A DNA stretch of 64,000 nt from Bacilli bacterium (lineage in GTDB: Bacteria; Bacillota_I; Bacilli_A; RF39; UBA660): NCBI GenBank assembly GCA_045541255.1, contig JAZQIU010000006.1:109504-173503 (forward strand), read 5' to 3'. Numbering within the stretch: position 1 is the stretch's first letter; the number at the start of each line of letters is the position of its first letter. Of the stretch, positions 2,557 to 64,000 are shown in pieces. Below the pieces are notes generated by a model. The model was not told where the DNA came from. It saw nothing but the letters and a program-made list of their open reading frames with translations, and made no database searches. Position numbers and translations under genes: made by a program.

Positions 2557-4584
2557 ATGAAAATGAAAAAGATAGTAATTATTTCGATAGTTTCAGTATT
2601 GTTGTTGGGTGGAATTATATTTGGTTTTTATAAATTATTTAAAGATGAAAATAGTTTGACAATTGCTGAAAAAACTTGGATAAGCAATAATAAAAATAGT
2701 GTTTATACAATAAATGTTCCAAATGATATAAATGTTTTTGGAAAGAATGGTGCGGGAGTATTCTTTGATTTTATTAATTCTTTAGATGAAGAATTAAGTT
2801 TAAAATTAAATAGTTCAGTATATTCAATTAATTCTACTAATGATGCTTTAGGATTTAATGTGGATACTAGTTATAATAGTAGAGATTTGTTAGTATATAT
2901 GGATTATTTTGTTTTAATTAGTAAAGATAAAAATAGTGTAGTTAATTTAGATAAAATCTCTGATAAAACTATAGGTATAATTGGTAAAGATTTAAGTTAT
3001 GTTAGTTCTTATTATAGTTTAAGTAATACAATAAAATCTTACGATAGTGGTGATGCGTTATTTAAAGGTTTAGAGGCTAATGAAGTTAGTTATGTTATAG
3101 TTCCTTTAAACCAATATAAAGATACTATAGTTAGTAAATCATATAATGTTAGTTATTTCTTTAATGATGCCAAAGTATATTATTATTTACATTTAGGTAG
3201 TGACGAAACATTAAATTCAATTATTACTAAATACTATAATATTTGGATAAATGACGAATATAATAAGAGTTATAATAGAAATAATTATAATTTATTTATA
3301 AATAGTTTAAAAATAACAGATATACAAGAAGATGAATTAACAGATAAAAGTTATATTTTTGAATATTTAGTTAATCAACCATATCAATTAATATCTAGAG
3401 GTGACTTTACTGGTGTAGTTAGTGAGTATTTAAATTCATTTACTGAGTTTAGTGATATAGAATTTGAATATGCTAAAGTTAAAAAATTTAATAATTTAAA
3501 GAATGATATTAGTAAGAAAAAAATAGATTTATATTTTAATCAATATAATTATTCTAGTAATTATTCAAAGATAAATATTAATTTTAATATAGATTATTAT
3601 TTAATTAGTAATAGAGATGTTAAGTTAAATATAGATAGTTTAAAGTCTTATAATGGTGAAATTTATGTTGAAGAAAATTCTATGCTTTATGAGTATTTAA
3701 GTAATTATAAAAATATTATTATTAAAACATATCCTAAATTAAGTAAAGTTAAAAGTTTATTAAAGAAAAATAATATTGTGTTAGTTGATAAGTTATCTTA
3801 TGATAATTATTTAATTGATAATTTAAGTAATGTGCATAAATTATTAGAGGATACTGTTGATAGTAAAACATATACATTTAATTATAAAAATGGAGAAGAT
3901 ATATTTTATAAATTATTTAGTAGTTATGTTAATACTTTAAATCCAAAAGAAGTAGTTGATGATAGTTTAAATACTTATTTTGAGACATATGAAGCTGGTA
4001 GTAGAACAGTTAAATTAGCTAGATATATTATTATGTTAATAATTGTATTGTTAATTGGAGCATATTTATTAATTAAGTCTAAAAAAAGAATTGTTTTAAA
4101 TACTAAAGTTAAAAATAATGAAAAAATTAGATATGTAGATATGTTAACTAGTTTAAAAAATAGAAATTATTTAAATGATAGAATGGAAATCTGGAACCAA
4201 AATACTGTGTACCCTCAAGCTGTTATTGTATTAGATTTAAACAATGTTAAATATTTAAATGATACATTTGGTCATGAAGAAGGGGATAAACAAATTAAAG
4301 CTGCTGCTAATGCTTTATTTAAAACACAATTAGATAATACTGAGTTATTAAGAACTGATGGTAATGAGTTTATGATTTATTTAGTAGGTTATAGTGAAAA
4401 GCAAGTAGTTAGTTACATTAAAAAGTTATTAAAAGAATTTAAAAAATTGCCTTATGAATATGGTGTTGCAATTGGATTTAGTATGATTAATGATGATTTG
4501 AAGTTGGTTGAAGATGCATTCAACGAAGCGATGTTAATGATGAGAAAAAATAAGAGCGCTTTTGAGGGTAATGATGATAAATAA
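2557..4584 (+). CDS. Membrane sensor protein with large extracytoplasmic region and degenerate GGDEF domain
   Basis: 675 aa: N-terminal TM, long Asn/Tyr-rich external region, second TM (IIMLIIVLLIGAYLLI), then a GGDEF-family C-terminus (DMLTSLKNRNYL..., LDLNNVKYLNDTFGHEEGD). The signature reads DGNEF rather than GGDEF/GGEEF. Confidence 0.7.
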   Translation: MKMKKIVIISIVSVLLLGGIIFGFYKLFKDENSLTIAEKTWISNNKNSVYTINVPNDINVFGKNGAGVFFDFINSLDEELSLKLNSSVYSINSTNDALGFNVDTSYNSRDLLVYMDYFVLISKDKNSVVNLDKISDKTIGIIGKDLSYVSSYYSLSNTIKSYDSGDALFKGLEANEVSYVIVPLNQYKDTIVSKSYNVSYFFNDAKVYYYLHLGSDETLNSIITKYYNIWINDEYNKSYNRNNYNLFINSLKITDIQEDELTDKSYIFEYLVNQPYQLISRGDFTGVVSEYLNSFTEFSDIEFEYAKVKKFNNLKNDISKKKIDLYFNQYNYSSNYSKININFNIDYYLISNRDVKLNIDSLKSYNGEIYVEENSMLYEYLSNYKNIIIKTYPKLSKVKSLLKKNNIVLVDKLSYDNYLIDNLSNVHKLLEDTVDSKTYTFNYKNGEDIFYKLFSSYVNTLNPKEVVDDSLNTYFETYEAGSRTVKLARYIIMLIIVLLIGAYLLIKSKKRIVLNTKVKNNEKIRYVDMLTSLKNRNYLNDRMEIWNQNTVYPQAVIVLDLNNVKYLNDTFGHEEGDKQIKAAANALFKTQLDNTELLRTDGNEFMIYLVGYSEKQVVSYIKKLLKEFKKLPYEYGVAIGFSMINDDLKLVEDAFNEAMLMMRKNKSAFEGNDDK

Positions 4585-5452
4585 AATTGTTAATTTGTTA
4601 TCGAAAGTATTTAAAAAGCCAAAGAAATATTTTAAAGACTTTTTTGGCAAAGTTTGGGAGATCTTATTTAAACCTGAGACATTAATTTTACCAGGGCAGT
4701 TAGCATTCTTTGTGATTTTAAGTTTTATACCATTGTTGTCAATAGTTAGTTGGATAGGTGGTTTACTAGGGGTTACTGTGGAAAGTGTAACAAGTCTTTT
4801 AGGACAAATTTTTACAACTGTTAACTTTGATTGGATAGTGCCTAATTTACAAACAACAGTGATAAGTTTAAAATATATTATTATACTTGGAGTGATGTTT
4901 TATATTGCTGCAGGTGGTGCCAATAGTATAATTATTGCTAGCAATCAAATTTATGGTATTAAGCAAAGTAATTATTTTAAAAGAAGAATTAAAGCTATGT
5001 GGATGACATTAATGTTATGTTTACTTTATGTCTTTGTGCTTTTGGTTCCATTACTTGGAAATAAAATTATATCAAGTTTTAATTATTTTGATTTAAAAAT
5101 TATTATAGATCCTATACTTACAATTGTAAGAGGACCGATATCGTGGATTATAGTATATTTCTTTGTTAAATCAATTTATGTTATAGCGCCTGATAAAGAT
5201 GTTAATCATAAAGGATTTAATTTAGGAGCTATGTTTACTACTGTATTTTGGGTAATATTAACTTATATATATAGTGGATGGATAAATAATTTTGCTTCTT
5301 ATGCTACTTATTACGGTAGTTTAAGTAATATAGCAATATTAATGTTGTGGTTATATTGGTTATGTTTTATATTTGTAATTGGGTTATGTTTAAATGTTAA
5401 AGTAGAGAATGAAGAATTGGAAAAAACTGGTGTAATAAAAAATCAAGAATAA
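4571..5452 (+). CDS. YihY/BrkB (virulence factor BrkB / RNase BN-like) family membrane protein
   Basis: Polytopic membrane ORF with the family-typical N-terminal LAFFVILSFIPLL segment. The first ATG (4571) overlaps the end of the upstream gene; the ORF track starts at TTG 4562. Confidence 0.6.
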   Translation: MMINKIVNLLSKVFKKPKKYFKDFFGKVWEILFKPETLILPGQLAFFVILSFIPLLSIVSWIGGLLGVTVESVTSLLGQIFTTVNFDWIVPNLQTTVISLKYIIILGVMFYIAAGGANSIIIASNQIYGIKQSNYFKRRIKAMWMTLMLCLLYVFVLLVPLLGNKIISSFNYFDLKIIIDPILTIVRGPISWIIVYFFVKSIYVIAPDKDVNHKGFNLGAMFTTVFWVILTYIYSGWINNFASYATYYGSLSNIAILMLWLYWLCFIFVIGLCLNVKVENEELEKTGVIKNQE

Positions 5453-25285: not shown

Positions 25286-25360
25286 TGGAGCAAGTGAGCG
25301 GAATCGAACCGCCGTCTCAGCCTTGGCAAGGCCGCATACTAACCGCTGTACTACACCTGC
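25286..25360 (-). tRNA. tRNA-Gly (anticodon GCC)
   Basis: The reverse complement reads GCAGGTGTAGTACAGCGGTTAGTATGCGGCCTTGCCAAGGCTGAGACGGCGGTTCGATTCCGCTCACTTGCTCCA. It has an acceptor stem, a D-loop AGCGGTTA, the anticodon loop TTGCCAA, the T-loop GGTTCGATTCC and an encoded CCA. Confidence 0.85.
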
Positions 25361-53725: not shown

Positions 53726-54199
53726 ATGTTATTTGAATTCAAAAACAATAATAATGATTTTTATGATATGAATTTAGATTATTTTAATTTAAATAAGTAT
53801 GATATAAAGAATAATGAATTTAAGAATTATAATAATATGAATAAAAGTGATAATTTAGATTTAGAGAATGGTTTTTATTTAGGCAATATATTTAGTGATT
53901 TGTATAAACCGTATAAAAATTTTAAACCTAAAAAAATTAATGCTTATAGTGAACAACAAAAAATGTTATTACGTATTCAAGAATTAGATTTTATTATAAA
54001 TGATTTAAATTTATATTTAGATGTATATCCTAATGATATGAAATGTTATGAAATTTTCAAAAAATATTGTTTAGAACTTGAAAGTTTAAAAAAGAAATAT
54101 GAAGAAAAATATCAAGTTTTAGAACTTATTAATGATACTAAAGGAAAGTATACATGGATAGAAGAACCATGGCCTTGGGATGGAGGTAAATATGTTTAA
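53726..54199 (+). CDS. cotJB: Spore coat-associated protein CotJB (with CotJA-like N-terminal segment)
   Basis: CotJB core QELDFIINDLNLYLDVYPNDMKCYEIFKKY...YEEKY...EPWPWD. The N-terminal GNIFSDLYKPY resembles the CotJA motif. It sits directly upstream of cotJC. Confidence 0.7.
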   Translation: MLFEFKNNNNDFYDMNLDYFNLNKYDIKNNEFKNYNNMNKSDNLDLENGFYLGNIFSDLYKPYKNFKPKKINAYSEQQKMLLRIQELDFIINDLNLYLDVYPNDMKCYEIFKKYCLELESLKKKYEEKYQVLELINDTKGKYTWIEEPWPWDGGKYV

Positions 54200-54398
54200 G
54201 TATGATAAAAAACTTCCTTATCCAGTAGATATAAAGAAAAAAGATTTAAAGATGGCAAAATATATCATAACTCAATTTGGTGGTTCTAATGGGGAGATTG
54301 CTGCAGCGTTAAGATATTATTCACAAAAGTTTAGTATGCCTACTGAAGAGGGTAAAGCATTATTAAATGATATTGCTACTGAAGAACTACTACAATAA
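54192..54398 (+). pseudogene. cotJC: cotJC (Mn-catalase-family spore coat protein), 5' fragment truncated by prophage insertion
   Basis: MFKYDKKLPYPVDIKK...FGGSNGEIAAALRYYSQKF...LLNDIATEE follows the conserved CotJC N-terminus. It then reads LLQ-stop exactly where the metal-binding ExxH segment should follow. The fragment is about 68 aa, whereas I recall full-length CotJC as about 190 aa. Confidence 0.75.
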
Positions 54399-54440
54399 GC
54401 ATATCAGTTATAAAAGCAATAAATAAAATAAGGAAAAAAG

Positions 54441-54472
54441 AGCAAAAAAAAAGGACTAGCCGAAGCTAGTTC
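54441..54472 (-). terminator. Rho-independent terminator after the endolysin gene
   Basis: Minus-strand hairpin gaactagc-ttcg-gctagtcc followed by a run of nine T. Confidence 0.65.
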
Positions 54473-54484
54473 TTTTAAATTTTA

Positions 54485-55348
54485 CTAATATAATTTAATA
54501 TTGTCCCAACGAGTAGTACCATTTTTAAAGTTAAGATTAACTTGTCTTTGAACTTCTGCATAATTAGATCCTAACGCTTTTTTACGAGCGTCGCCATTAC
54601 CGAAATCTCCTCTAATAGTTTTCTTAACTAAAGTTAAAATATCTACTGTAGGTTGTGGTTTAGGTGTTGCTGCTGGCTTAGAATTATTAGAACTTAACAT
54701 TTCATTAACTCTAGCTTGAACTTCACTATATCTGCTACCTAACGCTTTTTTACGGTCTTCTCCGTTACCATATTTACCAGCTATAACTTCCTTAGCTAAT
54801 TCGTCAACAGATTTATTAGCTATATCATTATTAGTAGTTGGTGTATTGTTTATAATTCCTATAACAGGATTTACAATACAACCTCTATAAGTATAGCCAC
54901 TACCAGCACCCCAGTTACCATTACCTTTATTACGTGTAGCAGTCCAGAAAGCCGTACTTCCGTAACCACTCTCAGCAGTTTTAACTTGAGTATCGCTATT
55001 TTTCTTAGTACAGATAGCAACGTGTCCTGCACCGTCATTACCAGATAAAGTAGCGCCTTTTTGCCATACCATAATACCACCGACAACTGGCTCTTTTACA
55101 ACTGATAATCCTAACGCGATAGCTCTTTCTATAAAGTTCTCAGCGTTACAATTTAACCAGTATTTTTCATACCCTAAATTGCACTCCTCATTAAATGCAC
55201 CGCAAGCATAACCTACACAGTTAGCTAAAACATTACAATTAGCGTCTGTTGGCTTTCCTTGAATACATGTAGAGTAACCACCGTTAGCTTTACGAATAAA
55301 ATATTTATTACCAGCTCCTGGCTTAGTTGTTCTTATATTCGTCATCAA
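54485..55348 (-). CDS. Endolysin: CHAP/NlpC-P60-like amidase-peptidase with two Cpl-7 (CW_7) cell-wall-binding repeats
   Basis: N-terminal Cys/His pair (NCVGYACG ... GHVAICT) and two C-terminal repeats GKYGNGEDRKKALGSRYSEVQARVNEML / GDFGNGDARKKALGSNYAEVQRQVNLNF. Confidence 0.85.
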   Translation of the reverse strand: MMTNIRTTKPGAGNKYFIRKANGGYSTCIQGKPTDANCNVLANCVGYACGAFNEECNLGYEKYWLNCNAENFIERAIALGLSVVKEPVVGGIMVWQKGATLSGNDGAGHVAICTKKNSDTQVKTAESGYGSTAFWTATRNKGNGNWGAGSGYTYRGCIVNPVIGIINNTPTTNNDIANKSVDELAKEVIAGKYGNGEDRKKALGSRYSEVQARVNEMLSSNNSKPAATPKPQPTVDILTLVKKTIRGDFGNGDARKKALGSNYAEVQRQVNLNFKNGTTRWDNIKLY

Positions 55349-55538
55349 TTTCAGCTCCTTCCCCTAAAAGTTCATTGACAGTATCTGTGTTGAAATTTGT
55401 TTGTACTCCGTATGGCTCAGCGTCTTCGCCAGCGCCCATACCTTCGACGTCTTGAATATAATTATTTTTATATTCTTCGACTAATTCTTTGTTGTACTCA
55501 ACTTCAATTATTTGTTCTTGAGTGTTTTTTTCTTCCAT
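55323..55538 (-). CDS. Small acidic hypothetical phage protein
   Basis: 71 aa, lying between the holin and the endolysin and overlapping the endolysin start by 26 nt. Confidence 0.4.
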   Translation of the reverse strand: MEEKNTQEQIIEVEYNKELVEEYKNNYIQDVEGMGAGEDAEPYGVQTNFNTDTVNELLGEGAEIDDEYKNN

Positions 55539-55539
55539 G

Positions 55540-55923
55540 TTAGTTTTCCTCCTTATCTTTATCTATATCTAACTCTGAGTCGACAGAGTTGATACCTAAA
55601 ATATCTTTTATTTTTGAATAACAGTCTAAAGCATATTTTCTATACGCCGTTAAAGTTATTCCTACAATTTCTAAAAATGTTATTATGTCATTAGGAACAG
55701 TAATCTCGATTCTTGCTAAAATGATAGGTAATACTTCTAAGCAGAAGCAATATGTTATAAAACATAAACAAAAAAGAAACGCTTTTAACGTTCCTTTTCC
55801 TATCTTTTTCCACTCGAATTTAGTAGCTTGACTACCTAATACCGCACCTAATACGGTATTAGTTAAATAAAGTGCTCCTAGCACCGCTAATAACATTAGA
55901 ATAGTTAATAAATTATTTTCCAA
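55540..55923 (-). CDS. Putative holin
   Basis: 127 aa with three or four TM helices and a charged C-terminus, immediately upstream of the endolysin. Confidence 0.65.
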   Translation of the reverse strand: MENNLLTILMLLAVLGALYLTNTVLGAVLGSQATKFEWKKIGKGTLKAFLFCLCFITYCFCLEVLPIILARIEITVPNDIITFLEIVGITLTAYRKYALDCYSKIKDILGINSVDSELDIDKDKEEN

Positions 55924-55933
55924 TTTAAACTCC

Positions 55934-56242
55934 TCACTTTCTGTGTAATTCTTCTAAATTGTCTATTCTATGGTGCGCTGATTTAGTAGACGATTCTACC
56001 GCAGATAATCTCTCGCCTAGTTGGTGTATTGTTTTATTAAAGTCTTTATTATCTAAACGTATCTCGTCAATATTTTTACTAATCATATCTAATTTTGTGT
56101 CTAGCTTAGTAGACATAGCCACGTCCTCTTTAGTCTCTTGTTTAACGTTTTTTCTACTATTCATTAAATAAGTAGCATAACCTATAATACCGCCTAGAAT
56201 AGTAAAAACTAAACCTATTGAAATCATAGTCGAACTTTCCAT
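55934..56242 (-). CDS. XhlA-like membrane/coiled-coil lysis-associated protein
   Basis: 102 aa with one TM helix plus a coiled coil (RLSAVESSTKSAHHRIDNLEE); its position before the holin matches PBSX-like modules. Confidence 0.45.
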   Translation of the reverse strand: MESSTMISIGLVFTILGGIIGYATYLMNSRKNVKQETKEDVAMSTKLDTKLDMISKNIDEIRLDNKDFNKTIHQLGERLSAVESSTKSAHHRIDNLEELHRK

Positions 56243-56775
56243 TATTCGTTATTTTCTTTACTTTCTTCTGGATTAGTAGGGAAATCTACTTCAAATGGAA
56301 AATTCTTTTGTTTAGTAATATCTCTTAATTGTTGTCTATATCTAGACCAATTACCATTTAAAACGTTTCCAAGTGAGCTAAATAAATCTTTTATTACCGA
56401 TAACATAGTTACGGCGTTAATTTCTTCTGGTACGGCTATACCTAATCTATCAATAAGGACATGTTTATCACTTTCAGCAAGTAATTTGTCTCTTATTGCT
56501 CTTATTTCTGCTGCTTTTTCTGCGATAAAATTGTTTTTAGCTAATTGTAGCCATGTATCAATATTATCGTTTAAATAAGCTTCTAAATCGTCTCTGTTGA
56601 TAATCTGCATTTTATATACGTAATAAGAATATAAAGTATATTCTGTACCGTCTTCTTCTGTTCTAGTAACTTCTTCTATGTCGTCAAAAAAAGCAACCTC
56701 AATTAGGTTGCCTTTTAATTCTCCAATTCTAAAGTTACCAGGTCTTATTGTGCTTTCTACCTTTTTTACTTTCAT
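56242..56775 (-). CDS. Tail-fibre-assembly / XkdW-like protein
   Basis: The C-terminal WSRYRQQLRDITKQKNFPFEVDFPTNP matches the W-x-x-YR-x-x-LRDIT...FP...P motif of phage tail-fibre assembly chaperones. Its start overlaps the RT 3' end by 41 nt. Confidence 0.5.
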   Translation of the reverse strand: MKVKKVESTIRPGNFRIGELKGNLIEVAFFDDIEEVTRTEEDGTEYTLYSYYVYKMQIINRDDLEAYLNDNIDTWLQLAKNNFIAEKAAEIRAIRDKLLAESDKHVLIDRLGIAVPEEINAVTMLSVIKDLFSSLGNVLNGNWSRYRQQLRDITKQKNFPFEVDFPTNPEESKENNE

Positions 56776-57799
56776 TTCTTATAACCTCCTTACACAATTT
56801 GTAATTAACATACGGTTTTATGTATTTTTGTTGATAATTAAATGAATTACAATGTTTTAACCAACCGCTGTAACTAAGCATGGCTGCTGCGTCGTGATAG
56901 GTTATATGATCTTTCTTAGCCATTTTCTTAGCACGCCTTTTAATTCTTAAGAAATTGCTTCTTCTAAGAGTAGTATACCCACGATAGAAACGATAACCTA
57001 AGAAATCAATAGGCCTAGACTCTGTTTTGAAAAGTTGCCAGTTTTCTTTAATACGTAACTTTTCTTTACTTAAGAAGTTGTCGATTTCTATTTTGATTTT
57101 TCTTAATTCTTTTTTGTTGTTCGAGAATAATACCATGTCGTCCATGTATCTTATATAATGTTTAACTTTTAATTGTTCTTTTATAAAATGATCTAGATCC
57201 TGTAAATAAAAATTCGCAAACCATTGACTCGTAAAATTGCCTATAGGTAGACCTTCCTGGCTACTGTCAATAATTAGATCAATAAGAAATAAAGTGTCTT
57301 TATCTTTTATAATCTTACGAAATTTATTTTTTAGAATCTCTTTGTCAATACTAGGGTAAAATTTCTTAATATCTATTTTTAAACAATATTTAGTATATTT
57401 TCTATCAGCTACTAATATCTTTTTTAAATGTCTCATGCCACGCATAATACCTCTATTTTTGATACTAGCGCAAGAAAACTCATACATGCCACGCATAATA
57501 AGCGGCTCTATCTGCAGCATTAAAGCCCAGTGAATAACCTGGTCTGGGTAAAAGCGCGGCTTAAAGATAATTCTTTCTTTTTTATTAGCACCGTCTCTTA
57601 TTTTCATTTCAACGTATGGACTAGGTCTATACGTTTTATCTTTTAATGCTTTTTGGATTTGTAAAGCGTAGTATGTAGGAGAGTCGAGTATTTTCTCAAC
57701 TGTCTTTCTAGATCCTTTACCTTTAGCAGCTTTATAAATAGCAGATTCAATATTGTTTAAATTTGTGATATTTTCATAAATGTTACCTTTTCTTTTCAT
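56735..57799 (-). CDS. DGR reverse transcriptase
   Basis: 354 aa with the RT motif 5 YMDD (IRYMDDMVLF) and the DGR-specific motif 4 [LIV]GxxxSQ (LPIGNFTSQWFAN). It lies 147 nt downstream of a template repeat. Confidence 0.92.
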   Translation of the reverse strand: MKRKGNIYENITNLNNIESAIYKAAKGKGSRKTVEKILDSPTYYALQIQKALKDKTYRPSPYVEMKIRDGANKKERIIFKPRFYPDQVIHWALMLQIEPLIMRGMYEFSCASIKNRGIMRGMRHLKKILVADRKYTKYCLKIDIKKFYPSIDKEILKNKFRKIIKDKDTLFLIDLIIDSSQEGLPIGNFTSQWFANFYLQDLDHFIKEQLKVKHYIRYMDDMVLFSNNKKELRKIKIEIDNFLSKEKLRIKENWQLFKTESRPIDFLGYRFYRGYTTLRRSNFLRIKRRAKKMAKKDHITYHDAAAMLSYSGWLKHCNSFNYQQKYIKPYVNYKLCKEVIRNESKKGRKHNKTW

Positions 57800-57946
57800 A
57801 ATTCCTGGTCCTTTTAAAATTCTTATATTTGCCTGCAGGTCTTTCGAGAAATTTCATAATGAAGATAAACCTACTAAACCCACCCAGAACGACTAATTTT
57901 TAGCAAGCGCTATGGAAAATGATGTGTAAGGATTTAATGATAAGTA
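57800..57946 (-). other. TR-to-RT spacer (probable 3' part of the DGR template RNA)
   Basis: Non-coding 147 nt between TR and the RT start. By analogy with the Bordetella phage DGR, this spacer is expected to be part of the RNA that primes cDNA synthesis. Confidence 0.45.
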
Positions 57947-58049
57947 GTCGAGCTCCGTTGTTCTCCCACGTATTCGAAGACGCGTTGTTAGCATTAAGAC
58001 ACCACAAGCCACAATAACTAGAGTCTACCCAACAACCGCCGACACGAGC
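57947..58049 (-). repeat. DGR template repeat (TR)
   Basis: A 103-bp match to the VR. In the 97-nt core, all 6 mismatches are at TR adenines on the coding strand. VR-frame translation ARVGGCWVDSSYCGLWCLNANNASSNTWENNGAR (6 AAY Asn codons). Confidence 0.9.
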
Positions 58050-58103
58050 TAATCGCTTAAGATAACGAAACACACACACCAAGTCCCTATTTTAATATAA
58101 GTG

Positions 58104-58206
58104 GTCGAGCTCCGTAGTTGCCGTTATAATTCGAAGACGTATCATTCAGCGTATAACACCACAAGCCACAATTAGTACCATTGAGCCAACGACCGCCGAC
58201 AAGTAC
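58104..58206 (-). repeat. Orphan DGR cassette C6 (VR/TR-like, 103 bp)
   Basis: Same length and conserved blocks as VR/TR. VR-frame translation VLVGGRWLNGTNCGLWCYTLNDTSSNYNGNYGAR, no stop, 6 Asn codons. Confidence 0.8.
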
Positions 58207-58257
58207 AAATCGTGAAAACTACGAGCACACACACCAAATCCCATTTTAATATAAGTG

Positions 58258-58360
58258 GTCGAGCTCCGATCGTAGCGTTGTAATTCGAAGACGCTTCGTT
58301 AAGGTTCCAATACCACAAGCCACACATAAGGGCGTCAGCCCAATTACCGCCGACAAGAGT
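58258..58360 (-). repeat. Orphan DGR cassette C5
   Basis: VR-frame translation TLVGGNWADALMCGLWYWNLNEASSNYNATIGAR, no stop, 5 Asn codons. Confidence 0.8.
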
Positions 58361-58419
58361 ATAAAAGAATAACTACACGACCAGAGGCCACACACCAAAT
58401 CCCAATTTTAAAATAAGTA

Positions 58420-58522
58420 GTCGAGCTCCGACGTTGATATTCGATAACGAAGACGCGTCATTAAAGTTCCAATACCACAAGCCAGCTTGAGAGGTATTGT
58501 TCCATCTACCGCCGACAAGAGC
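58420..58522 (-). repeat. Orphan DGR cassette C4
   Basis: VR-frame translation ALVGGRWNNTSQAGLWYWNFNDASSLSNINVGAR, no stop, 6 Asn codons. Confidence 0.8.
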
Positions 58523-58579
58523 GAATAAAGACTAAACGTTCGAAGCGCACACATCAAATCCCTAATTTTGATATAAGCG

Positions 58580-58682
58580 GTCGAGCTCCGACGTTGTTCC
58601 AAGATTCCGAAGACGCGTTTTCAATAGTAAGAGCCCACAAGCCACTACAACTGACGTCCCAGAAGCTACCGCCGACAAAAAG
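58580..58682 (-). repeat. Orphan DGR cassette C3
   Basis: VR-frame translation LFVGGSFWDVSCSGLWALTIENASSESWNNVGAR, no stop, 3 Asn codons. Confidence 0.8.
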
Positions 58683-58736
58683 CAGTAACAGAAATACGGA
58701 GCCATACACACCAAATCCCAAATTTTAATATAAGTA

Positions 58737-58839
58737 GTCGAGCTCCGACGCCTGTACCATTAGCCGAAGAAAGCTCTTCAAAGTGCCAACACCACAAGCC
58801 ACAACGAAGCGCATTATTCCAATTGCCGCCGACAAGAGC
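58737..58839 (-). repeat. Orphan DGR cassette C2
   Basis: VR-frame translation ALVGGNWNNALRCGLWCWHFEELSSANGTGVGAR, no stop, 4 Asn codons. Confidence 0.8.
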
Positions 58840-58894
58840 GAACGCTGAGAGTTAGCACGAACTATACACACCAAATCCCATTTTAATATAAGTG

Positions 58895-58997
58895 GTCGAG
58901 CTCCGACGTCGGCTACTGACTCAGAAGAATCTAGCAGCAGCAAATAACTAAATAATCCAGAACGATTATCAATACGCCAAAGACCGCCGACAAGAGC
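58895..58997 (-). repeat. Orphan DGR cassette C1
   Basis: VR-frame translation ALVGGLWRIDNRSGLFSYLLLLDSSESVADVGAR, no stop, 1 Asn codon. This is the most divergent copy (SGLF instead of CGLW). Confidence 0.75.
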
Positions 58998-59051
58998 GGA
59001 ATCAGTAGACCAACGCGAACATTACACACCATGCCCTAAAAAATAAATTTA

Positions 59052-59137
59052 GCGGCTCCGACTACAGTCGGTATAATAATTATTTTTATTTATGGGAGGC
59101 TGGCCGCCCCCAAACCCCCGCTAACTGGTTTTAAGAA
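59052..59137 (-). promoter_or_regulatory. VR-specific 3' flank: GC-rich island plus small hairpin (candidate IMH/target-recognition element)
   Basis: Directly after the stop codon lies cgggggtttgggggcggccagcctccc (59094-59121, coding strand), very GC-rich in an AT-rich context. A hairpin CCGAC-TGTA-GTCGG follows at 59058-59071. The segment is absent downstream of TR and of all six cassettes. Confidence 0.5.
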
Positions 59138-60239
59138 GTCGAGCTCCGCTGACCTCCCACGTAAGCGAAGACGCGTTGTTAGCATTAAGACACCACAAGC
59201 CACAATAACTAGAGTCCACCCAACAACCGCCGACAAGAGCGATTCTATTTCCTGGATTACACCAGTAATAATCTGTAGTGTAAGTATCACTACTACCACC
59301 TACTTTAGTAGGGAAAGCAACTAACGGATTCTTAGAATCGTAACCTAACTCTGTAATATAACTACCACCAGTAGAACTATTTACATAGCCAACTTTCTCA
59401 TAATCTCCGTCAAAGACGTCGCTTGCGTAAGAAGTAGGATTATAACAGATATAAGCTTCATATTCTGATATATTAACACCGTCTAAGAATTGCCATATAT
59501 TACCGAATATATCTTCAATTCCACGATAGATAACAGATCCTTTATCAGTACCTGTAGCACTTCCAGATTTCATACCTAAACTATTGCAGCCACCACTATT
59601 TAAAGCAGCAGTATTGCTTCCGTTAGTATAACCTGGTCCTAATTTTGACTGAGAATTATAATCAGCATATTCAACTAAATATAATAATTGAATTAGGAAA
59701 TAATGCCAGTCTAATTGGTGCCAGCCACTACCTAGATTTTTAGCGTATGTTCTAAAGTCTGCTATAGTTTTACTTACTAAAGGAGCATAACCACTACGAC
59801 TATAAACTCCGTCGCTTGATCCAGACATAGTATAACGTCCGATCATAAATTCTTTACTTCTAGTAAAGCCACTTAAATTATCTTTAGAGATAAGTACATA
59901 TTCGTAACCGTAAGACACATACCTCTTATAATAGAATTCTGGTATTATTGTCATTACTTGACCGTTACTACCTGTAAAGGAAAAATTAGCGTCGCCATAA
60001 TAAGCAACTATCTTTTTATTAGTATTATCATAATTACAAGTGATTATATCACTCCATGGGTAAATACTATCAAAGTCGTTTCTTACTGCAGTAGTACCAA
60101 CTTGAGCGTTAGCTACTAAACCTACGGCGTCCTCAATTCTTTCCCAAGCAGACGAAGCAGAACTTATTTTACGTCTTACTCCGTATACTTTACTTAAATT
60201 GTTCGATTTCTTTTCTCGAACATTTATTACACCTAACAT
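59121..60239 (-). CDS. DGR target protein: tail fibre / receptor-binding protein with C-terminal lectin (FGE-sulfatase-like) fold
   Basis: 372 aa in the tail-fibre position. It carries the FGE/CLec-like motif YRGIEDIFGNIWQFLDG, and its C-terminus GGCW...CGLWC...GARL carries the VR. Confidence 0.88.
   Translation of the reverse strand: MLGVINVREKKSNNLSKVYGVRRKISSASSAWERIEDAVGLVANAQVGTTAVRNDFDSIYPWSDIITCNYDNTNKKIVAYYGDANFSFTGSNGQVMTIIPEFYYKRYVSYGYEYVLISKDNLSGFTRSKEFMIGRYTMSGSSDGVYSRSGYAPLVSKTIADFRTYAKNLGSGWHQLDWHYFLIQLLYLVEYADYNSQSKLGPGYTNGSNTAALNSGGCNSLGMKSGSATGTDKGSVIYRGIEDIFGNIWQFLDGVNISEYEAYICYNPTSYASDVFDGDYEKVGYVNSSTGGSYITELGYDSKNPLVAFPTKVGGSSDTYTTDYYWCNPGNRIALVGGCWVDSSYCGLWCLNANNASSLTWEVSGARLLKTS
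59138..59240 (-). repeat. DGR variable repeat (VR), 3' end of the target gene
   Basis: 103-bp counterpart of the TR, encoding ALVGGCWVDSSYCGLWCLNANNASSLTWEVSGAR. It differs from the TR at adenine positions only within the core. Confidence 0.9.
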
Positions 60240-60240
60240 A

Positions 60241-61155
60241 TTAACCCTCCAATTCCATATTAGATAATTGATATGTAATAGTTATCGTAATATCTTCAAG
60301 AGGTTTAGCACTTGTTAAGATTTTAAATCCGCCGTCATAAGAGTTTATACATGCGTCATTTAGTTTAACTTGATTAGCTAAATCTAAAATACCATTAACT
60401 AGCGTATTAGACGTAATATCACTATCAATTATATCATATTCATACAATTTTGTATCACTATTTAACGCCCAATTATCTAACGTTAAAGTAGTTTCATAGC
60501 TTTTAAGGCCATTTTTTACGATTTCATATATTTGATTAGCAAGTTTTCCAGCAGCGTCAGAGTCTAATTGATTCTTGATTTTATTAAACCACTCAGAGAA
60601 AGTGTCCTCAGTTGTTTGTATATATTCTTCGAATTTAGTATATAGTTGGTCGTATATTTCTTCTGTGTTTAATGTTTCAACGGTAGAAGCAACAACTCCA
60701 CAAACTGATTCTTCAAATCTAGTATCTTTAATCGCTGACTGTGTAATAGAAGTAGCACCATTATTAACATAAATTTCAGCAATTTTAATATCATATACGG
60801 TAGAGGATCTAACTAAAGCTGGAGCTGACGGATTATCGCTAAATGTTCCTTTGATTATTTGAGCTGATATTAACCTATTTGTTAAATCTAATCTAATAAC
60901 AACATTATCGATTCTTTTTAATGTACCGTCAGCAGTTTCAACAGTTTTAATTAAATCCCCAGTATTAGAATAGCGATAACCTTCTATATTGGCGTCGCCT
61001 TCTTGAATAGTTATAGTCATATCATTATTAGCTATGACTCTTAACTCATTATTAAAAATACCATTAGTAAAGTATTTCTTTAAATGACGAGCAAAGTCTT
61101 CCGCAAAGTAAACTCTGTCGTCGTTTATGTCATTAAAAAAACTATATTTTTCCAT
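60241..61155 (-). CDS. Phage tail/baseplate-associated structural protein (function unknown)
   Basis: 304 aa lying between the Gp37-like protein and the DGR target. The N-terminus (YSFFNDINDDRVYFAEDFARHLKKYFTNGIF) is a pattern I associate with siphophage fibre-module proteins. Confidence 0.45.
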   Translation of the reverse strand: MEKYSFFNDINDDRVYFAEDFARHLKKYFTNGIFNNELRVIANNDMTITIQEGDANIEGYRYSNTGDLIKTVETADGTLKRIDNVVIRLDLTNRLISAQIIKGTFSDNPSAPALVRSSTVYDIKIAEIYVNNGATSITQSAIKDTRFEESVCGVVASTVETLNTEEIYDQLYTKFEEYIQTTEDTFSEWFNKIKNQLDSDAAGKLANQIYEIVKNGLKSYETTLTLDNWALNSDTKLYEYDIIDSDITSNTLVNGILDLANQVKLNDACINSYDGGFKILTSAKPLEDITITITYQLSNMELEG

Positions 61156-61172
61156 AACTTCCGTCCTTTCTT

Positions 61173-62225
61173 TTATTCATTTACAAATTTTTCTGCGATA
61201 GGATTACCATAAGTAGGTATTATATCATGTTTACCTTTTTCGATAACTTCTTCTACCTCAGTAATTCTTTGTCTTTGAGTAGTGTTCCAACTTTCTTTTT
61301 TAATATTAACAATATCTCCTAAATCCCAATATTTTCTATAATGGGTAGAGTGTATTGTTGCCTCAAAACTTTCAGTTGGATTAGTTAGTTTTTCTTTGCC
61401 TAAGTTGTCTAAAATTGCGTTATATTGGTCTGTAGTTAAATCTGTATTGCTTTCGCTTTTTGCGTCTACAAACGCCTCTCTAATATCAAAATCGTGCGTA
61501 TCAGTTGTTACGTTAGTTACTGTTCTTAAAATACGAGCCGTATCTTCGCCAGTACCACCAACTAATACGTCAGTAATCATATTTTTTCTACTGTATGTAT
61601 ATTCAGCTGAATCAAGATTTGATTTATCTTCGCTGAATTCATATCTAGTATTAACTTTTTGAGAGTCTGTTCTATCTTTTCCTACATAATTAACGTATTT
61701 ATAACGTTTATTAGCTAAGTCTAAGATAATTTTTCCACCTATATTAGAAGCACGAGAAAGTTTTTCGTGAAATTCATATACATTTTTATAAGTACATTGA
61801 AAATCAACTTTATCACTTGTTATATCGCTAGAAGTAATATCTAGTAAAGAAAAAGGCGTCATATTGTTTAATAGCTTTCTAAAAGCTCCAATATAATCGC
61901 CACTATAAGTAACACGTTTCTTTATAATTCTTCTTTTTAACAATGATAATAAAAAACTACCATAAACTGATATAGTAACTTTATCTCCGTCGTCGTTAAA
62001 CTTCCAAGACTCAATTATTCCAACTTCGTCGTTTTCTGTTAAATCACTTCGAACAATAATGTTATCATAATTTAATAACCTAAGATTATTAGGTGTTAAA
62101 TTTAAGCTTAATTCAAATTCTCCAGTCTCGAAATATTTTCTTCTCCAACGTAGAGAGCCGTAGCTATCTATAACACCTAAAAACTTTAAGTCTCTATCAT
62201 ATACATTTAAAGATATAGTTTCCAT
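61173..62225 (-). CDS. Siphovirus Gp37-like tail protein (Tal position)
   Basis: 350 aa immediately after Dit, with an N-terminus (ISLNVYDRDLKFLGVIDSYGSLRWRRKYFETGEFELSL) typical of ReqiPepy6 Gp37-like proteins. Confidence 0.55.
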   Translation of the reverse strand: METISLNVYDRDLKFLGVIDSYGSLRWRRKYFETGEFELSLNLTPNNLRLLNYDNIIVRSDLTENDEVGIIESWKFNDDGDKVTISVYGSFLLSLLKRRIIKKRVTYSGDYIGAFRKLLNNMTPFSLLDITSSDITSDKVDFQCTYKNVYEFHEKLSRASNIGGKIILDLANKRYKYVNYVGKDRTDSQKVNTRYEFSEDKSNLDSAEYTYSRKNMITDVLVGGTGEDTARILRTVTNVTTDTHDFDIREAFVDAKSESNTDLTTDQYNAILDNLGKEKLTNPTESFEATIHSTHYRKYWDLGDIVNIKKESWNTTQRQRITEVEEVIEKGKHDIIPTYGNPIAEKFVNE

Positions 62226-63106
62226 TATACCGCCTCATATTCTGGTAAGAATTCAACGGTAGTCTCTAAATTGTCCTCGCCACTATCTGCGCCACTTCTA
62301 AAGGTATTAGTTCCACTAGGTACTTGTAAATACTTACTACCATAAGCCATTAAGTAATTTATGTTTTCTTCTTCTCCAGTAGCAGCACTTATATAAATAA
62401 CATTTTTATTATCTATATGAGTAGTAATAATAATCTGATCTCCTGGAGACATAACTTTTTCTATCTGGATTATCTCACGAGTATTAACATTAAATAGATA
62501 TGGATTAGTTACAGTATCATTAGCTTTAAATCTAATAGTCATACCATAATCAAAATCCGTAGTATTTTCTGTAGTACCCATAGAAGTAGTATTTTTAGTA
62601 CCAAATTTAATACCTGTTTCTTGTGGAATCTTTAACGCAAATTTAAACGCTGGCGTCCATGTAGCCATAGACAATACTGTAGCTGCAATAGCCGAAAAAC
62701 GCGGATTAGGACATACTAGAGAAATAGTAAAATCTCTAGTGTAACCTTTCTTTTCTGGAATAGTTACTTTTTCAACAACACAAGTGATTTTTCTTTCAAT
62801 ATTTCCTTCATAATAATATAAAGTACCTTCACTATTAAGAGGGAACATATCGAATAGTAATAATCTATTTTCTTGTACGTTTTCTGTTATAGTACCTTTA
62901 ATTTGTAAATCTCTTTTATCAATACTCGTACCAGTCCAAGTAGCGCCGACACCATACGCAGATTTAACACTATTAACACTACCTATAACGTCATGAAAGC
63001 CGTCGCATATTCCTAATAGGAAAGGTGGCTTATATGTAAAAGTGATTAGATCGCCTTTGTAGTTTTCAAATATTAAAGTTCTTTCCATATAATCACGCCT
63101 TTCCAT
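62225..63106 (-). CDS. Distal tail protein (Dit, Sipho_tail family)
   Basis: 293 aa directly downstream of the tape measure gene, overlapping it; the sequence pattern is typical of phage tail family proteins. Confidence 0.65.
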   Translation of the reverse strand: MERRDYMERTLIFENYKGDLITFTYKPPFLLGICDGFHDVIGSVNSVKSAYGVGATWTGTSIDKRDLQIKGTITENVQENRLLLFDMFPLNSEGTLYYYEGNIERKITCVVEKVTIPEKKGYTRDFTISLVCPNPRFSAIAATVLSMATWTPAFKFALKIPQETGIKFGTKNTTSMGTTENTTDFDYGMTIRFKANDTVTNPYLFNVNTREIIQIEKVMSPGDQIIITTHIDNKNVIYISAATGEEENINYLMAYGSKYLQVPSGTNTFRSGADSGEDNLETTVEFLPEYEAV

Positions 63107-64000
63107 ATTTTAGGTTATACTCTTGTAAAGCTTTTCTTGTTTGTCGAGCAGTTTCAGCTGGAGACAATGGCTCAGTAGAGTTAATAGTTAAACTAAAGTT
63201 ATTGTTTACCTCGTTGTTAGTTACTGCAGACTGTTGAGATACATACTCTTTATTTTCGTCAGCAGTTAAAACACGTTCTCCTTTATGTAGTAGCGCTGGC
63301 ATTTCGTCATAAGGTACGTAATCCATACCGACACGAAGTTTCTTGATTAAAGAAATATTTAATCCTTTACCTCCAACACCAGGTACCCAGTCTGGAATCT
63401 TTATTTTATTTAATCCTTTAATAAAAGTATTTATTCCGTCTATTATAAAGTTAATAGGAGCTTTAAATATTCCTGTTATGGTAGAAATAATACCGCTGAA
63501 TATATCTTTTACTCCCTGCCATGCTTTTTTCCAATTACCAGTAAATATACCAGTTATAAAATTTATTATTCCATTTAAGTATTTTTTTAATCCTTCTATG
63601 ATAGGTGTTAGTGCTGAGAAAGCACGACCGAAAGTATTAGTTAATATACTTGCAGTAATATTAAGCGCACCCTGTAGAGGTGGAAGTATAGCGTTAATAA
63701 TCATAGTCAATAAATTTATTATTGGAGGTAAGATCATATTTAATAACTCTATAAGTGGAGTTAATAACGCCATAAGTAAATCTATAAATGGTTGTAATAA
63801 TTGTAATATTGGTTGTAGTAATGGTAATAATGGTTGAATAAGACTAAGCAATAAAGGTAAAATTAACTGTATTATCTGTAATAATGGCGGTAATAACATA
63901 TTTATTAGATCCACTATTACTGGTAGAATCGACTCTATGACCTGGGTTATAAAAGGTAAGAGTTGATTTATTAAATCAATAAGTATAGGGAAAATAGCAT
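63093..64000 (-). CDS. Tape measure protein, C-terminal part (5' end outside the window)
   Basis: The frame stays open to the window edge (…AIFPILIDLINQLLPFITQVIESILPVIVDLINM…). It shows Leu/Pro-rich periodic helices and a glycine-rich membrane-like segment, then the conserved C-terminal ...HKGERVLTADE motif. Confidence 0.8.
   Translation of the reverse strand, partial: AIFPILIDLINQLLPFITQVIESILPVIVDLINMLLPPLLQIIQLILPLLLSLIQPLLPLLQPILQLLQPFIDLLMALLTPLIELLNMILPPIINLLTMIINAILPPLQGALNITASILTNTFGRAFSALTPIIEGLKKYLNGIINFITGIFTGNWKKAWQGVKDIFSGIISTITGIFKAPINFIIDGINTFIKGLNKIKIPDWVPGVGGKGLNISLIKKLRVGMDYVPYDEMPALLHKGERVLTADENKEYVSQQSAVTNNEVNNNFSLTINSTEPLSPAETARQTRKALQEYNLKYGKA

Follow-up and report, generated by a model that had tools for sequence, protein, structure and literature searches.

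Diversity-generating retroelements (DGRs) are described by a working model in which one invariant template repeat (TR) serves as template and its adenines define the variable residues. In the DGR of Bordetella phage BPP-1 (mtd-avd-TR-brt), adenine-specific transfer proceeds from the TR to a variable repeat (VR) at the 3' end of a tail-fiber gene with a C-type-lectin fold, a GC-rich 3' boundary is followed by a hairpin that only the VR has, a structured spacer RNA lies between the TR and the reverse transcriptase (RT) gene, and TR-proximal sequence forms a short pairing with that spacer (PMC6182149). A prophage element on the minus strand of a 64,000-nucleotide stretch of a Bacilli bacterium contig (JAZQIU010000006.1, positions 109,504 to 173,503; the stretch is called the window here) resembles the BPP-1 element in all of these respects and has an RT of the same clade, although in its case the pairing is a proposed one and the hairpin a putative directionality signal. 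It differs in having seven templates where BPP-1 has one TR, in having no avd in the window's ~10 kb of prophage, and in its spacer RNA, which is RT-18 instead of the Rfam RT-10 of BPP-1 (PMC5737381). Comparison of the locus with its relatives makes it very likely that this is an active phage DGR whose template is chosen from a library instead of being a single TR, with cassette choice, adenine mutagenesis, and mosaics each adding to the diversity of the product.

The window element also resembles the Architecture A elements of "Lineage 3" (Wu et al. 2018, PMC5758913), such as that of Lactobacillus phage LBR48, which have a TR-RT core without avd and belong to Firmicutes phages. Among RTs of cultured phages, that of LBR48 is the closest (48.8% identity). 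Unlike the window, this phage has one TR, as do the more distant relatives examined; LBR48 was rejected as a model for the window element, its genome ends having given one weak TR-like match and no array. No near-identical DNA was matched in the cultured-phage collection. In the window, no ORF (open reading frame) lies between the target and RT genes, and no Avd family match occurs among the prophage ORFs at 54400 to 64000, a negative that covers the part of the prophage inside the window, the remainder lying beyond it. Avd is present in 74% of DGRs and is not universal, and the Avd-less Architecture A makes up 29% of those catalogued (PMC5758913).

The RT gene (56735 to 57799, minus strand) encodes 354 amino acids and matches Pfam RVT_1. 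An earlier reading of the sequence alone (the original prediction) had reported the motifs IGNFTSQ and YMDD in the RT ORF and GNIWQFLDG in a 372-amino-acid ORF, and all of them were found. The first agrees with the motif-4 signature [I/L]GxxxSQ, and in a PDB sequence search the closest solved structure was BPP-1 Brt (8ub7_A, E = 3.7e-36), the sequence of 8ub7_A having been checked to be that of BPP-1 brt. Group II intron RTs matched at E values of about 4e-11, and group II intron and retron RTs near 1e-10. The enzyme is thus predicted to be of the DGR type.

Ungapped comparison of the TR nearest to the RT gene (58043 to 57947) with the VR (59234 to 59138, both minus strand) over the 97-nucleotide core bounded by GTCGGCGG and GGAGCTCGAC gave six mismatches, at TR plus-strand positions 58026, 57974, 57973, 57962, 57961, and 57958. 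The TR coding strand has A at every one of these sites, so that 6 of its 20 adenines and none of its 77 other positions are changed; the chance of six out of six mismatches falling on A is about (20/97)^6 = 8e-5. The set is the one that had been aligned by hand in the original prediction, and its codon effects (N->L, N->V, N->S, and a silent GTA->GTG) are correct as well. The 103-bp repeat that it had delimited (57947 to 58049 and 59138 to 59240) is adenine-only within the core and not beyond it, as one nonadenine mismatch (G at 58045 versus T at 59236) lies in the GCTCGT/GCTCTT block directly 5' of the core.

The VR (59138 to 59240, minus strand) consists of the core at 59138 to 59234 plus a GCTCTT block and belongs to the target gene (59121 to 60239, minus strand), which encodes a 372-amino-acid tail protein with its last ~34 codons variable (PHROG 5302, "tail protein," E = 5e-67). 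Searches of Pfam, NCBIfam, and the PDB with the target sequence returned nothing, and fold comparison alone was informative. The AlphaFold2 model has a mean predicted local distance difference test (pLDDT) score of 77.8, with values below 50 in the VR part. Foldseek ranks three chains of TaqVP, a DGR variable protein, first against it (best 5vf4, E = 2.8e-8), with Mtd and TvpA as weak matches lower down. The target is predicted to be a C-type-lectin variable protein that carries the VR within its ORF.

The TR compared above is one of seven. A repeat search combined with anchoring on GTCGGCGG and GGAGCTCGAC recovered eight copies in the window, the VR and seven cassettes (c1 to c7), where two had been recognized before. 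The cassettes form a tandem array of seven units at 57947 to 59036 (minus strand) with a period of 154 to 162 nucleotides. Each unit comprises a 5' motif, a variable leader of ~30 nucleotides, GCTCTT, a 97-nucleotide cassette, and a yACTTAT flank that reads yACTTATATT after each cassette. The seven copies of the 5' motif, GGGAyyTGrTGTGT, each lie ~30 nucleotides upstream of a cassette, within 58074 to 59036 (59036 to 59024, 58879 to 58866, 58719 to 58706, 58562 to 58549, 58403 to 58390, 58242 to 58229, and 58087 to 58074, minus strand). On the same strand follow c1 (VGGLWRIDNRSGLFSYLLLLDSSESVADVGAR; 58895 to 58991), which is adenine-poor and lacks the central GGCTTGTGG block, c2 (VGGNWNNALRCGLWCWHFEELSSANGTGVGAR; 58737 to 58833), c3 (VGGSFWDVSCSGLWALTIENASSESWNNVGAR; 58580 to 58676), c4 (VGGRWNNTSQAGLWYWNFNDASSLSNINVGAR; 58420 to 58516), c5 (VGGNWADALMCGLWYWNLNEASSNYNATIGAR; 58258 to 58354), c6 (VGGRWLNGTNCGLWCYTLNDTSSNYNGNYGAR; 58104 to 58200), and the RT-proximal c7 (VGGCWVDSSYCGLWCLNANNASSNTWENNGAR; 57947 to 58043), which is the TR of the original prediction. 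All eight cores are exactly 97 nucleotides long and keep the same frame, VGG.W......GLW.......SS.......GAR, with no stops in the cassettes and only 60 to 70% identity from one cassette to another. Each cassette has adenine in the first or second place of 8 to 13 codons, and the union of these codons over the seven covers 20 of 32; the framework residues between adenine codons differ among cassettes as well. The canonical arrangement of one invariant TR per VR therefore does not appear to apply, and the earlier description of a classic one-TR element was incomplete, not wrong: a DGR it is, by its Brt-like RT, adenine-confined mismatches, TaqVP-like target model, and variable tails in public proteins (see below), and its single TR is one of seven alternatives.

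A small palindrome, GTCGGAGCTCGAC, arises from the conserved 3' end in the cassettes whose variable part ends in GTC (58895 to 58907, 58737 to 58749, and 58420 to 58432), with the T-rich flank after it. A scan flagged it as terminator-like and, although probably incidental, it sits exactly at the proposed start of the complementary DNA (cDNA).

Taken by itself, the window could be accommodated by an element in which only c7 templates and the six upstream copies are duplication relics or decayed TRs or VRs, since its VR matches c7 only, c1 is adenine-poor and has no central conserved block, and loci with RTs more distantly related to this one have a single TR. Related loci make that account very improbable. 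We scanned 160 loci with RT relatives, drawn from genome and viral contig collections, with a profile of the window's eight cassettes. Two or more template cassettes were flagged in 35 loci, the window included, of which ~31 are true arrays, with up to seven templates; arrays of eight were found subsequently, so that the sizes run from 2 to 8 cassettes. Arrays were seen only in loci whose RT is at least ~74% identical to that of the window, though not every such locus has one; the rest of that range, and all more distant relatives examined, have a canonical VR and one TR. The related loci yield 111 unique array cassettes, each of 97, 94, or 100 nucleotides and each free of stops in the VR frame; in the two remaining frames, stops are absent from 65 and 4 of them. 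An open VR frame in noncoding DNA implies selection to stay usable as coding donors, which relics would not be expected to show. The 5' motif is likewise kept in 72 of 72 unique internal spacers at ~2 bits per position, compared with ~0.3 bits for the next 16 nucleotides. The relatives' VRs, moreover, match internal cassettes with adenine-only differences, and two loci with the array of the window have VRs from c6 and c4, as described next.

Where a locus had a VR and two or more templates, its VR was compared with every cassette and with the best mosaic path. Of 29 testable loci, 26 have a VR that is explained by one cassette or by a mosaic of two or three. Summed over these 26, 200 of 213 mismatches fall on template adenines, which occupy ~21% of template positions. 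A single donor with no nonadenine mismatch accounts for the VR at 13 loci (for example, 12 of 12 mismatches on adenines in L087 and L103 and 11 of 11 in L011 and L167), and mosaic VRs with no such mismatch occur in L008, L085, L097, L162, L163, and L164. Several of these donors correspond to cassettes of the window: a cassette identical to c2 gives the 5' part of the mosaic VR in L163 and a close variant of c5 (4 differences) its 3' part; one identical to c3 gives the 5' part of the VR in L162 (protein P0123); c4 is the donor in L168, and identical counterparts of it are the donors in L161 and L167; c6 is the donor in L001 and L002; and c7 is the donor of the window's own VR, which at present is an adenine-mutagenized copy of it.

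The breakpoints of the six mosaics lie at the conserved GGCTTGTGG or GCGTCTTCG blocks. Such breakpoints, together with end blocks and internal blocks common to all copies, would suit homologous recombination, and donor switching could be pictured as RecA-type gene conversion from silent DNA cassettes, as in pilS/pilE or vls, with the RT adding adenine mutations afterwards. Which part of a mosaic comes from the RT-nearer cassette varies, as such recombination would allow, and two loci have a target fused to an array unit, as a VR-cassette recombination with deletion predicts. We nevertheless consider this explanation improbable. Adenine-specific differences from internal cassettes indicate that those cassettes were reverse-transcribed in place, a pattern that DNA recombination alone cannot give, so that no separate DNA step is needed. 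The RNA-type motifs kept in every unit, with their alternation of A and G opposite U, are not required by it, and the two fused junctions could be jumps of the assembler between a VR and a near-identical donor. In these loci (L083, 5597 to 5850, and L101, 5130 to 5392), the target ORF continues into an adenine-rich cassette, after which come an array-type spacer and a further TR, and the junctions have no VR-type flank or hairpin; either a recombination that deleted the array or an assembler jump would produce them. A consistent polarity of the mosaics was considered and dropped, since L008, L085, and L097 take the 3' part from the VR-proximal cassette and L162 and L163 take it from the RT-proximal one.

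The position of the donors bears on a further possibility, that the RT has its only start site at the last cassette and proceeds through the rest of the array, after which any cassette in a long cDNA integrates by homology. A single RT-18 element downstream of the last cassette and integration homologies common to all cassettes are what this would predict. However, the farthest donor is the seventh cassette from the RT (L098), which would need a cDNA of more than 1.1 kb, and the cDNAs of BPP-1 Brt are 90 to 120 nucleotides long (PMC6182149). RT-proximal donors are also not favored: of 18 single-donor loci, 4 have one, where uniform use predicts 4.18. Read-through would, in addition, give no reason for every unit to conserve the flank and the 5' motif. 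We regard read-through as unlikely, if somewhat less so than gene conversion, and prefer the reading in which individual cassettes are selected as templates.

Donor switching can be followed between phages that are otherwise identical. L001 and the window align over 5.17 kb, with no differences at 54400 to 59099 (4.7 kb, which includes lysis genes, the RT gene, RT-18, and the seven cassettes) and 38 differences within 59100 to 59299, where the VR lies; over the 4.9 kb at 54400 to 59299, the VR alone differs. The VR of L001 derives from c6 with six adenine and three other mismatches, and L168 combines the window's seven cassettes with a VR from c4 (nine adenine mismatches and one nonadenine mismatch). 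Public proteins equal to the window target in residues 1 to 335 have tails from c3, c4, c5, c6, or mosaics such as c3 plus c4, and in the contigs of these proteins the donor assignments hold at the DNA level. The 90% cluster of the target has 68 members; among the 13 other members listed, 9 have no differences in residues 1 to 335, and the tail of each is different, the c4- and c6-type tails of listed members being N-to-X derivatives. Some 90% clusters for the target protein comprise over 1,000 distinct sequences. The hypervariable tip that the original prediction had considered probable is thus borne out by public proteins in which the last 37 residues are wholly different behind an unchanged body, and population-level hypervariability appears to be restricted to the VR. 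At the level of sequence, these comparisons demonstrate the array, selection on its coding frame, the use of any cassette as donor with changes only at adenines, and donor switching between otherwise identical phages.

How a cassette is chosen may be reflected in the RNA. RT-18 (Rfam RF03021; 57822 to 57912, minus strand; 60.2 bits against a gathering score of 41.3) is the sole structured spacer RNA between c7 and the RT gene and occurs in one copy per locus in 11 of 11 relatives, irrespective of array size. Its A-rich 3' tail (AAATATAAGAAT, which includes AAATATAAG; 57819 to 57830, minus strand) is complementary to the CTTATATT flank that follows the cassettes. Cognate flanks and tails are complementary over a mean of 8.18 nucleotides, compared with 6.31 for noncognate combinations, a value reached in none of 2,000 permutations, and four compensatory flank/tail types exist (CUUAUAUU/AAUAUAAG, UUAUUUUUG/CAAAAAUAA, UUUUAUAUC/GAUAUAAAA, and UUUAUAAUA/UAUUAUAAA). 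The initiation site of BPP-1 is fixed by 7 bp of pairing that join TR-proximal sequence to the spacer alongside the priming adenosine (PMC6182149). Every array cassette keeps a flank with 4 to 9 nucleotides of complementarity to the one RT-18 tail, which makes alternative flank/tail pairing a concrete candidate mechanism of selection; that a cassette is selected by pairing of its flank with the single tail is, by this analogy, plausible though somewhat short of probable. No simple relation was seen between the degree of complementarity and donor use, as c4 and c7 have the weakest flanks (5 nucleotides) and are used.

A second pairing is proposed for the 5' motif. Its putative partner, ACACATCATTTTCC (57914 to 57927, minus strand), is present in a single copy of the form ACACATCAyyTTCC directly 5' of RT-18 and could form the 3' strand of a long-range RNA helix. 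One position of the 5' motif opposite a U alternates between A and G (42:42, or 30:27 in a trimmed set), as would be expected of RNA pairing, and the terminal pair has changed from U-A to C-G in one lineage. The flank/tail pairing seems the better supported of the two. In single-TR relatives, a TATAAT box lies 7 to 22 nucleotides upstream of GGGATTTGATGTGT, and the TR RNA therefore probably starts at this motif. Promoters within each unit, giving nested transcripts, were considered for the array and dropped as a general account, since a consensus scan found none on the coding strand inside it; the CTTATATT flank resembles a -10 box in the window array and is absent from the short-spacer arrays L089 and L097. 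In L089, L097, L098, L008, L013, and L101, a longer spacer (66 to 81 nucleotides) precedes the last cassette and has ACACAT a few nucleotides upstream of its own GGGATTTGGTGTGT. This spacer would be able to double back onto the last unit's 5' motif, which may modulate use of the RT-proximal cassette. RT-18 had no assigned function, and some of the RT motifs were only speculated to belong to DGRs (Weinberg et al. 2017, PMC5737381); its location in a DGR, with the "unpaired" 3' tail proposed to pair with the TR flank, suggests one.

Based on these observations, we propose the following scheme. The seven cassettes, the RT-18 RNA, and the RT gene are on the same strand and would probably share one transcript. 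The RT, held by the single RT-18 element, would copy one cassette into cDNA and misincorporate opposite its adenines. The cassette would be selected by pairing of its CUUAUAUU flank with the A-rich RT-18 tail, as in the TR-spacer pairing of BPP-1, and the GGGAyyUGrUGUGU motif of its unit might form a closing helix with ACACAUCAUUUUCC. The cDNA would then replace the tail-fiber VR through the blocks common to the cassettes and the VR, GCTCTTGTCGGCGG on the 5' side and GGAGCTCGAC on the 3' side, and the GC hairpin downstream of the VR only would make the transfer one-way. Replacement that halts or switches at the internal conserved blocks GGCTTGTGG and GCGTCTTCG could give rise to mosaic VRs. 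In the window, the latest full write would have come from the RT-proximal cassette, c7.

The hairpin invoked here (59095 to 59111, minus strand), a candidate part of the directionality signal of DGRs at the VR 3' end (a GC-rich IMH plus a downstream hairpin), is GC-rich, has a 6-bp stem and a 5-nucleotide loop, and lies 26 nucleotides downstream of the VR core. It is present 3' of the VR and after none of the cassettes; the GC-rich end GGAGCTCGAC is common to the VR and the cassettes, whose downstream flanks differ. The stem is kept in 12 diverse relatives with compensatory changes in 3 of 6 pairs, and in the window alone the fold is no better than that of shuffled sequences.

Several points weigh against this interpretation. 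The VRs of L017 and L165 and part of that of L004 are not explained. L165 (VR at 4006 to 4102, array at 4249 to 5293) has the window's exact array and an identical target body, yet its VR matches none of its own cassettes. Some explained VRs contain 1 to 4 nonadenine differences (3 in L001, 4 in L003). No array promoter was found in the window by consensus scan. The internal flanks are complementary to the RT-18 tail over only 4 to 9 nucleotides, and their minimal common core, CTTA, is also in the VR flank and could therefore serve homology between cDNA and target, not RNA pairing. The complementarity of the 5' and 3' motifs is mostly invariant, with limited covariation, and the motifs were selected by pattern. 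Beyond the match of a VR to a given cassette, the steps of the scheme are what we infer from sequence. Every relative is a metagenome assembly, so that mosaic VRs might in principle be chimeras of mixed populations, even though mosaic proteins turn up in identical form on 3 to 4 contigs. As to the VR of L165 (...NYASGVKAGLWYWHLYETSTISWTTIGAR), it has 11 nonadenine mismatches and resembles cassette 3 of L097, which suggests either that the donor cassette was lost or that sequence was exchanged between phages.

A broader form of the assembly concern is that the array and the donor patterns are themselves artifacts of assembling hypervariable repeats. The relatives do come from short reads, and a VR and its donor have long identical stretches in common. 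Against this, cassettes that are only 60 to 70% identical pose no ambiguity in assembly, independent samples and pipelines give the array in the same order (L001, L165, L168, and L081), and the window array lies within a contig of at least 64 kb. We consider such an artifact extremely improbable and retain the reading of a template library.

It is also conceivable that the array is rewritten by the element itself, adenine-mutagenized cDNA or VR copies being occasionally written back into cassettes, although we regard this as doubtful. Cassette 3 of L008 differs from cassette 1 (cassettes at 5270 and 5580) at 10 positions, all of them template adenines; cassette 3 of L106 (at 5588) has eight of nine adenine-type mismatches from a cassette found in L006, L084, and L086; and arrays mix cassettes with 5 to 8 AAY codons and cassettes with 0 or 1. 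Adenine-type derivatives and this mixture of adenine-rich and adenine-poor cassettes hint that cassettes can be rewritten. The VR of L098 is an adenine-poor cassette copied nearly unchanged. Clear write-back is rare (3 of 126 close pairs). A general adenine-biased evolution of cassettes was rejected, as the A state occurs in 125 of 218 variable columns of orthologous cassettes, a mild enrichment which indicates that ordinary substitution dominates. If write-back does take place, adenine-rich "exploration" templates and adenine-poor "archived" solutions would together constitute a heritable memory of receptor specificity, restorable in one step.

Many homologs of the target (56 to 63% identical; for example, P0050, P0052, and P0055) have an N-terminal prepilin-type cleavage/methylation domain (PF07963), and others carry PF10651, PF18454, or PF12571. 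From these varied N termini, the variable C-type-lectin module seems to have been fused to pilin-like and other carriers outside the phage context. Between the target gene and the array lies a weak terminator-like feature (59038 to 59071, minus strand), consisting of the hairpin CCGACTGTAGTCGG (59058 to 59071) and, 10 nucleotides on, a T-run (59038 to 59047); the consensus scan did not flag the hairpin. On the far side of the RT gene is a gene for a tail-fiber assembly chaperone (56242 to 56775, minus strand; Pfam Phage_tail_APC, PHROG 4912), which is context and no part of the DGR. The 3' end of the RT ORF and the chaperone ORF share 41 nucleotides (56735 to 56775), which places the DGR within a tail-fiber and lysis transcription unit.

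At the prophage boundary, 53726 to 54398 (plus strand) holds a CotJB gene and then an ORF that matches only positions 1 to 67 of the 284-position manganese catalase (CotJC) profile. This ORF ends near 54400, at the prophage start, where GC content goes up from a level of ~24% to one of ~31% and the genes change strand. The truncated match suggests that the prophage is inserted in a cotJC-like sporulation gene, in the manner of skin or SPbeta-type elements. L001, which has the same phage, diverges from the window exactly at 54200 to 54399. The host segment (1 to 54000) has ~24% GC and a very strong positive GC skew (0.22 to 0.56 per 2 kb); its ORFs of at least 90 amino acids are nearly all on the plus strand, and a single tRNA-Gly (25286 to 25360) is on the minus strand.

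Other DGRs depart from the one-TR, one-VR layout. Those of Treponema, Legionella, and Stenotrophomonas have one TR and several VRs or targets (PMC5758913, PMC6642488), which is the opposite of the window, where many templates serve one target, and separate TR-VR pairs occur in crAss-like phages (PMC12386605). In one published survey, loci with multiple TRs were put aside to be checked by hand and removed. In the literature searchable without subscription, we found no account of donor switching or of alternative templates arrayed in tandem for a single VR. The element appears to be common in gut metagenomes, and DGR finders that give a single best TR-VR pair will under-describe array loci. As several candidate initiation sites would compete on one RNA, the arrays offer a natural test of how an RT chooses its initiation site, and they suggest a design for multitemplate DGR mutagenesis tools.

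In the pilS-to-pilE system of Neisseria and the vls system of Borrelia, unexpressed in-frame partial gene copies are arrayed beside one expression site, and mosaic replacement bounded by conserved blocks occurs by DNA gene conversion without an RT. The copies in the window differ in bearing an adenine-mutagenesis signature and in having an RT and an RNA element at the end of the array, and the adenine-only signature argues for an RNA intermediate as opposed to conversion from silent cassettes. A phage with such a library could make large jumps in receptor-binding sequence in addition to local searches, with mosaics further multiplying the diversity of the cassettes, and in this it resembles cassette-based antigenic variation carried out via reverse transcription.

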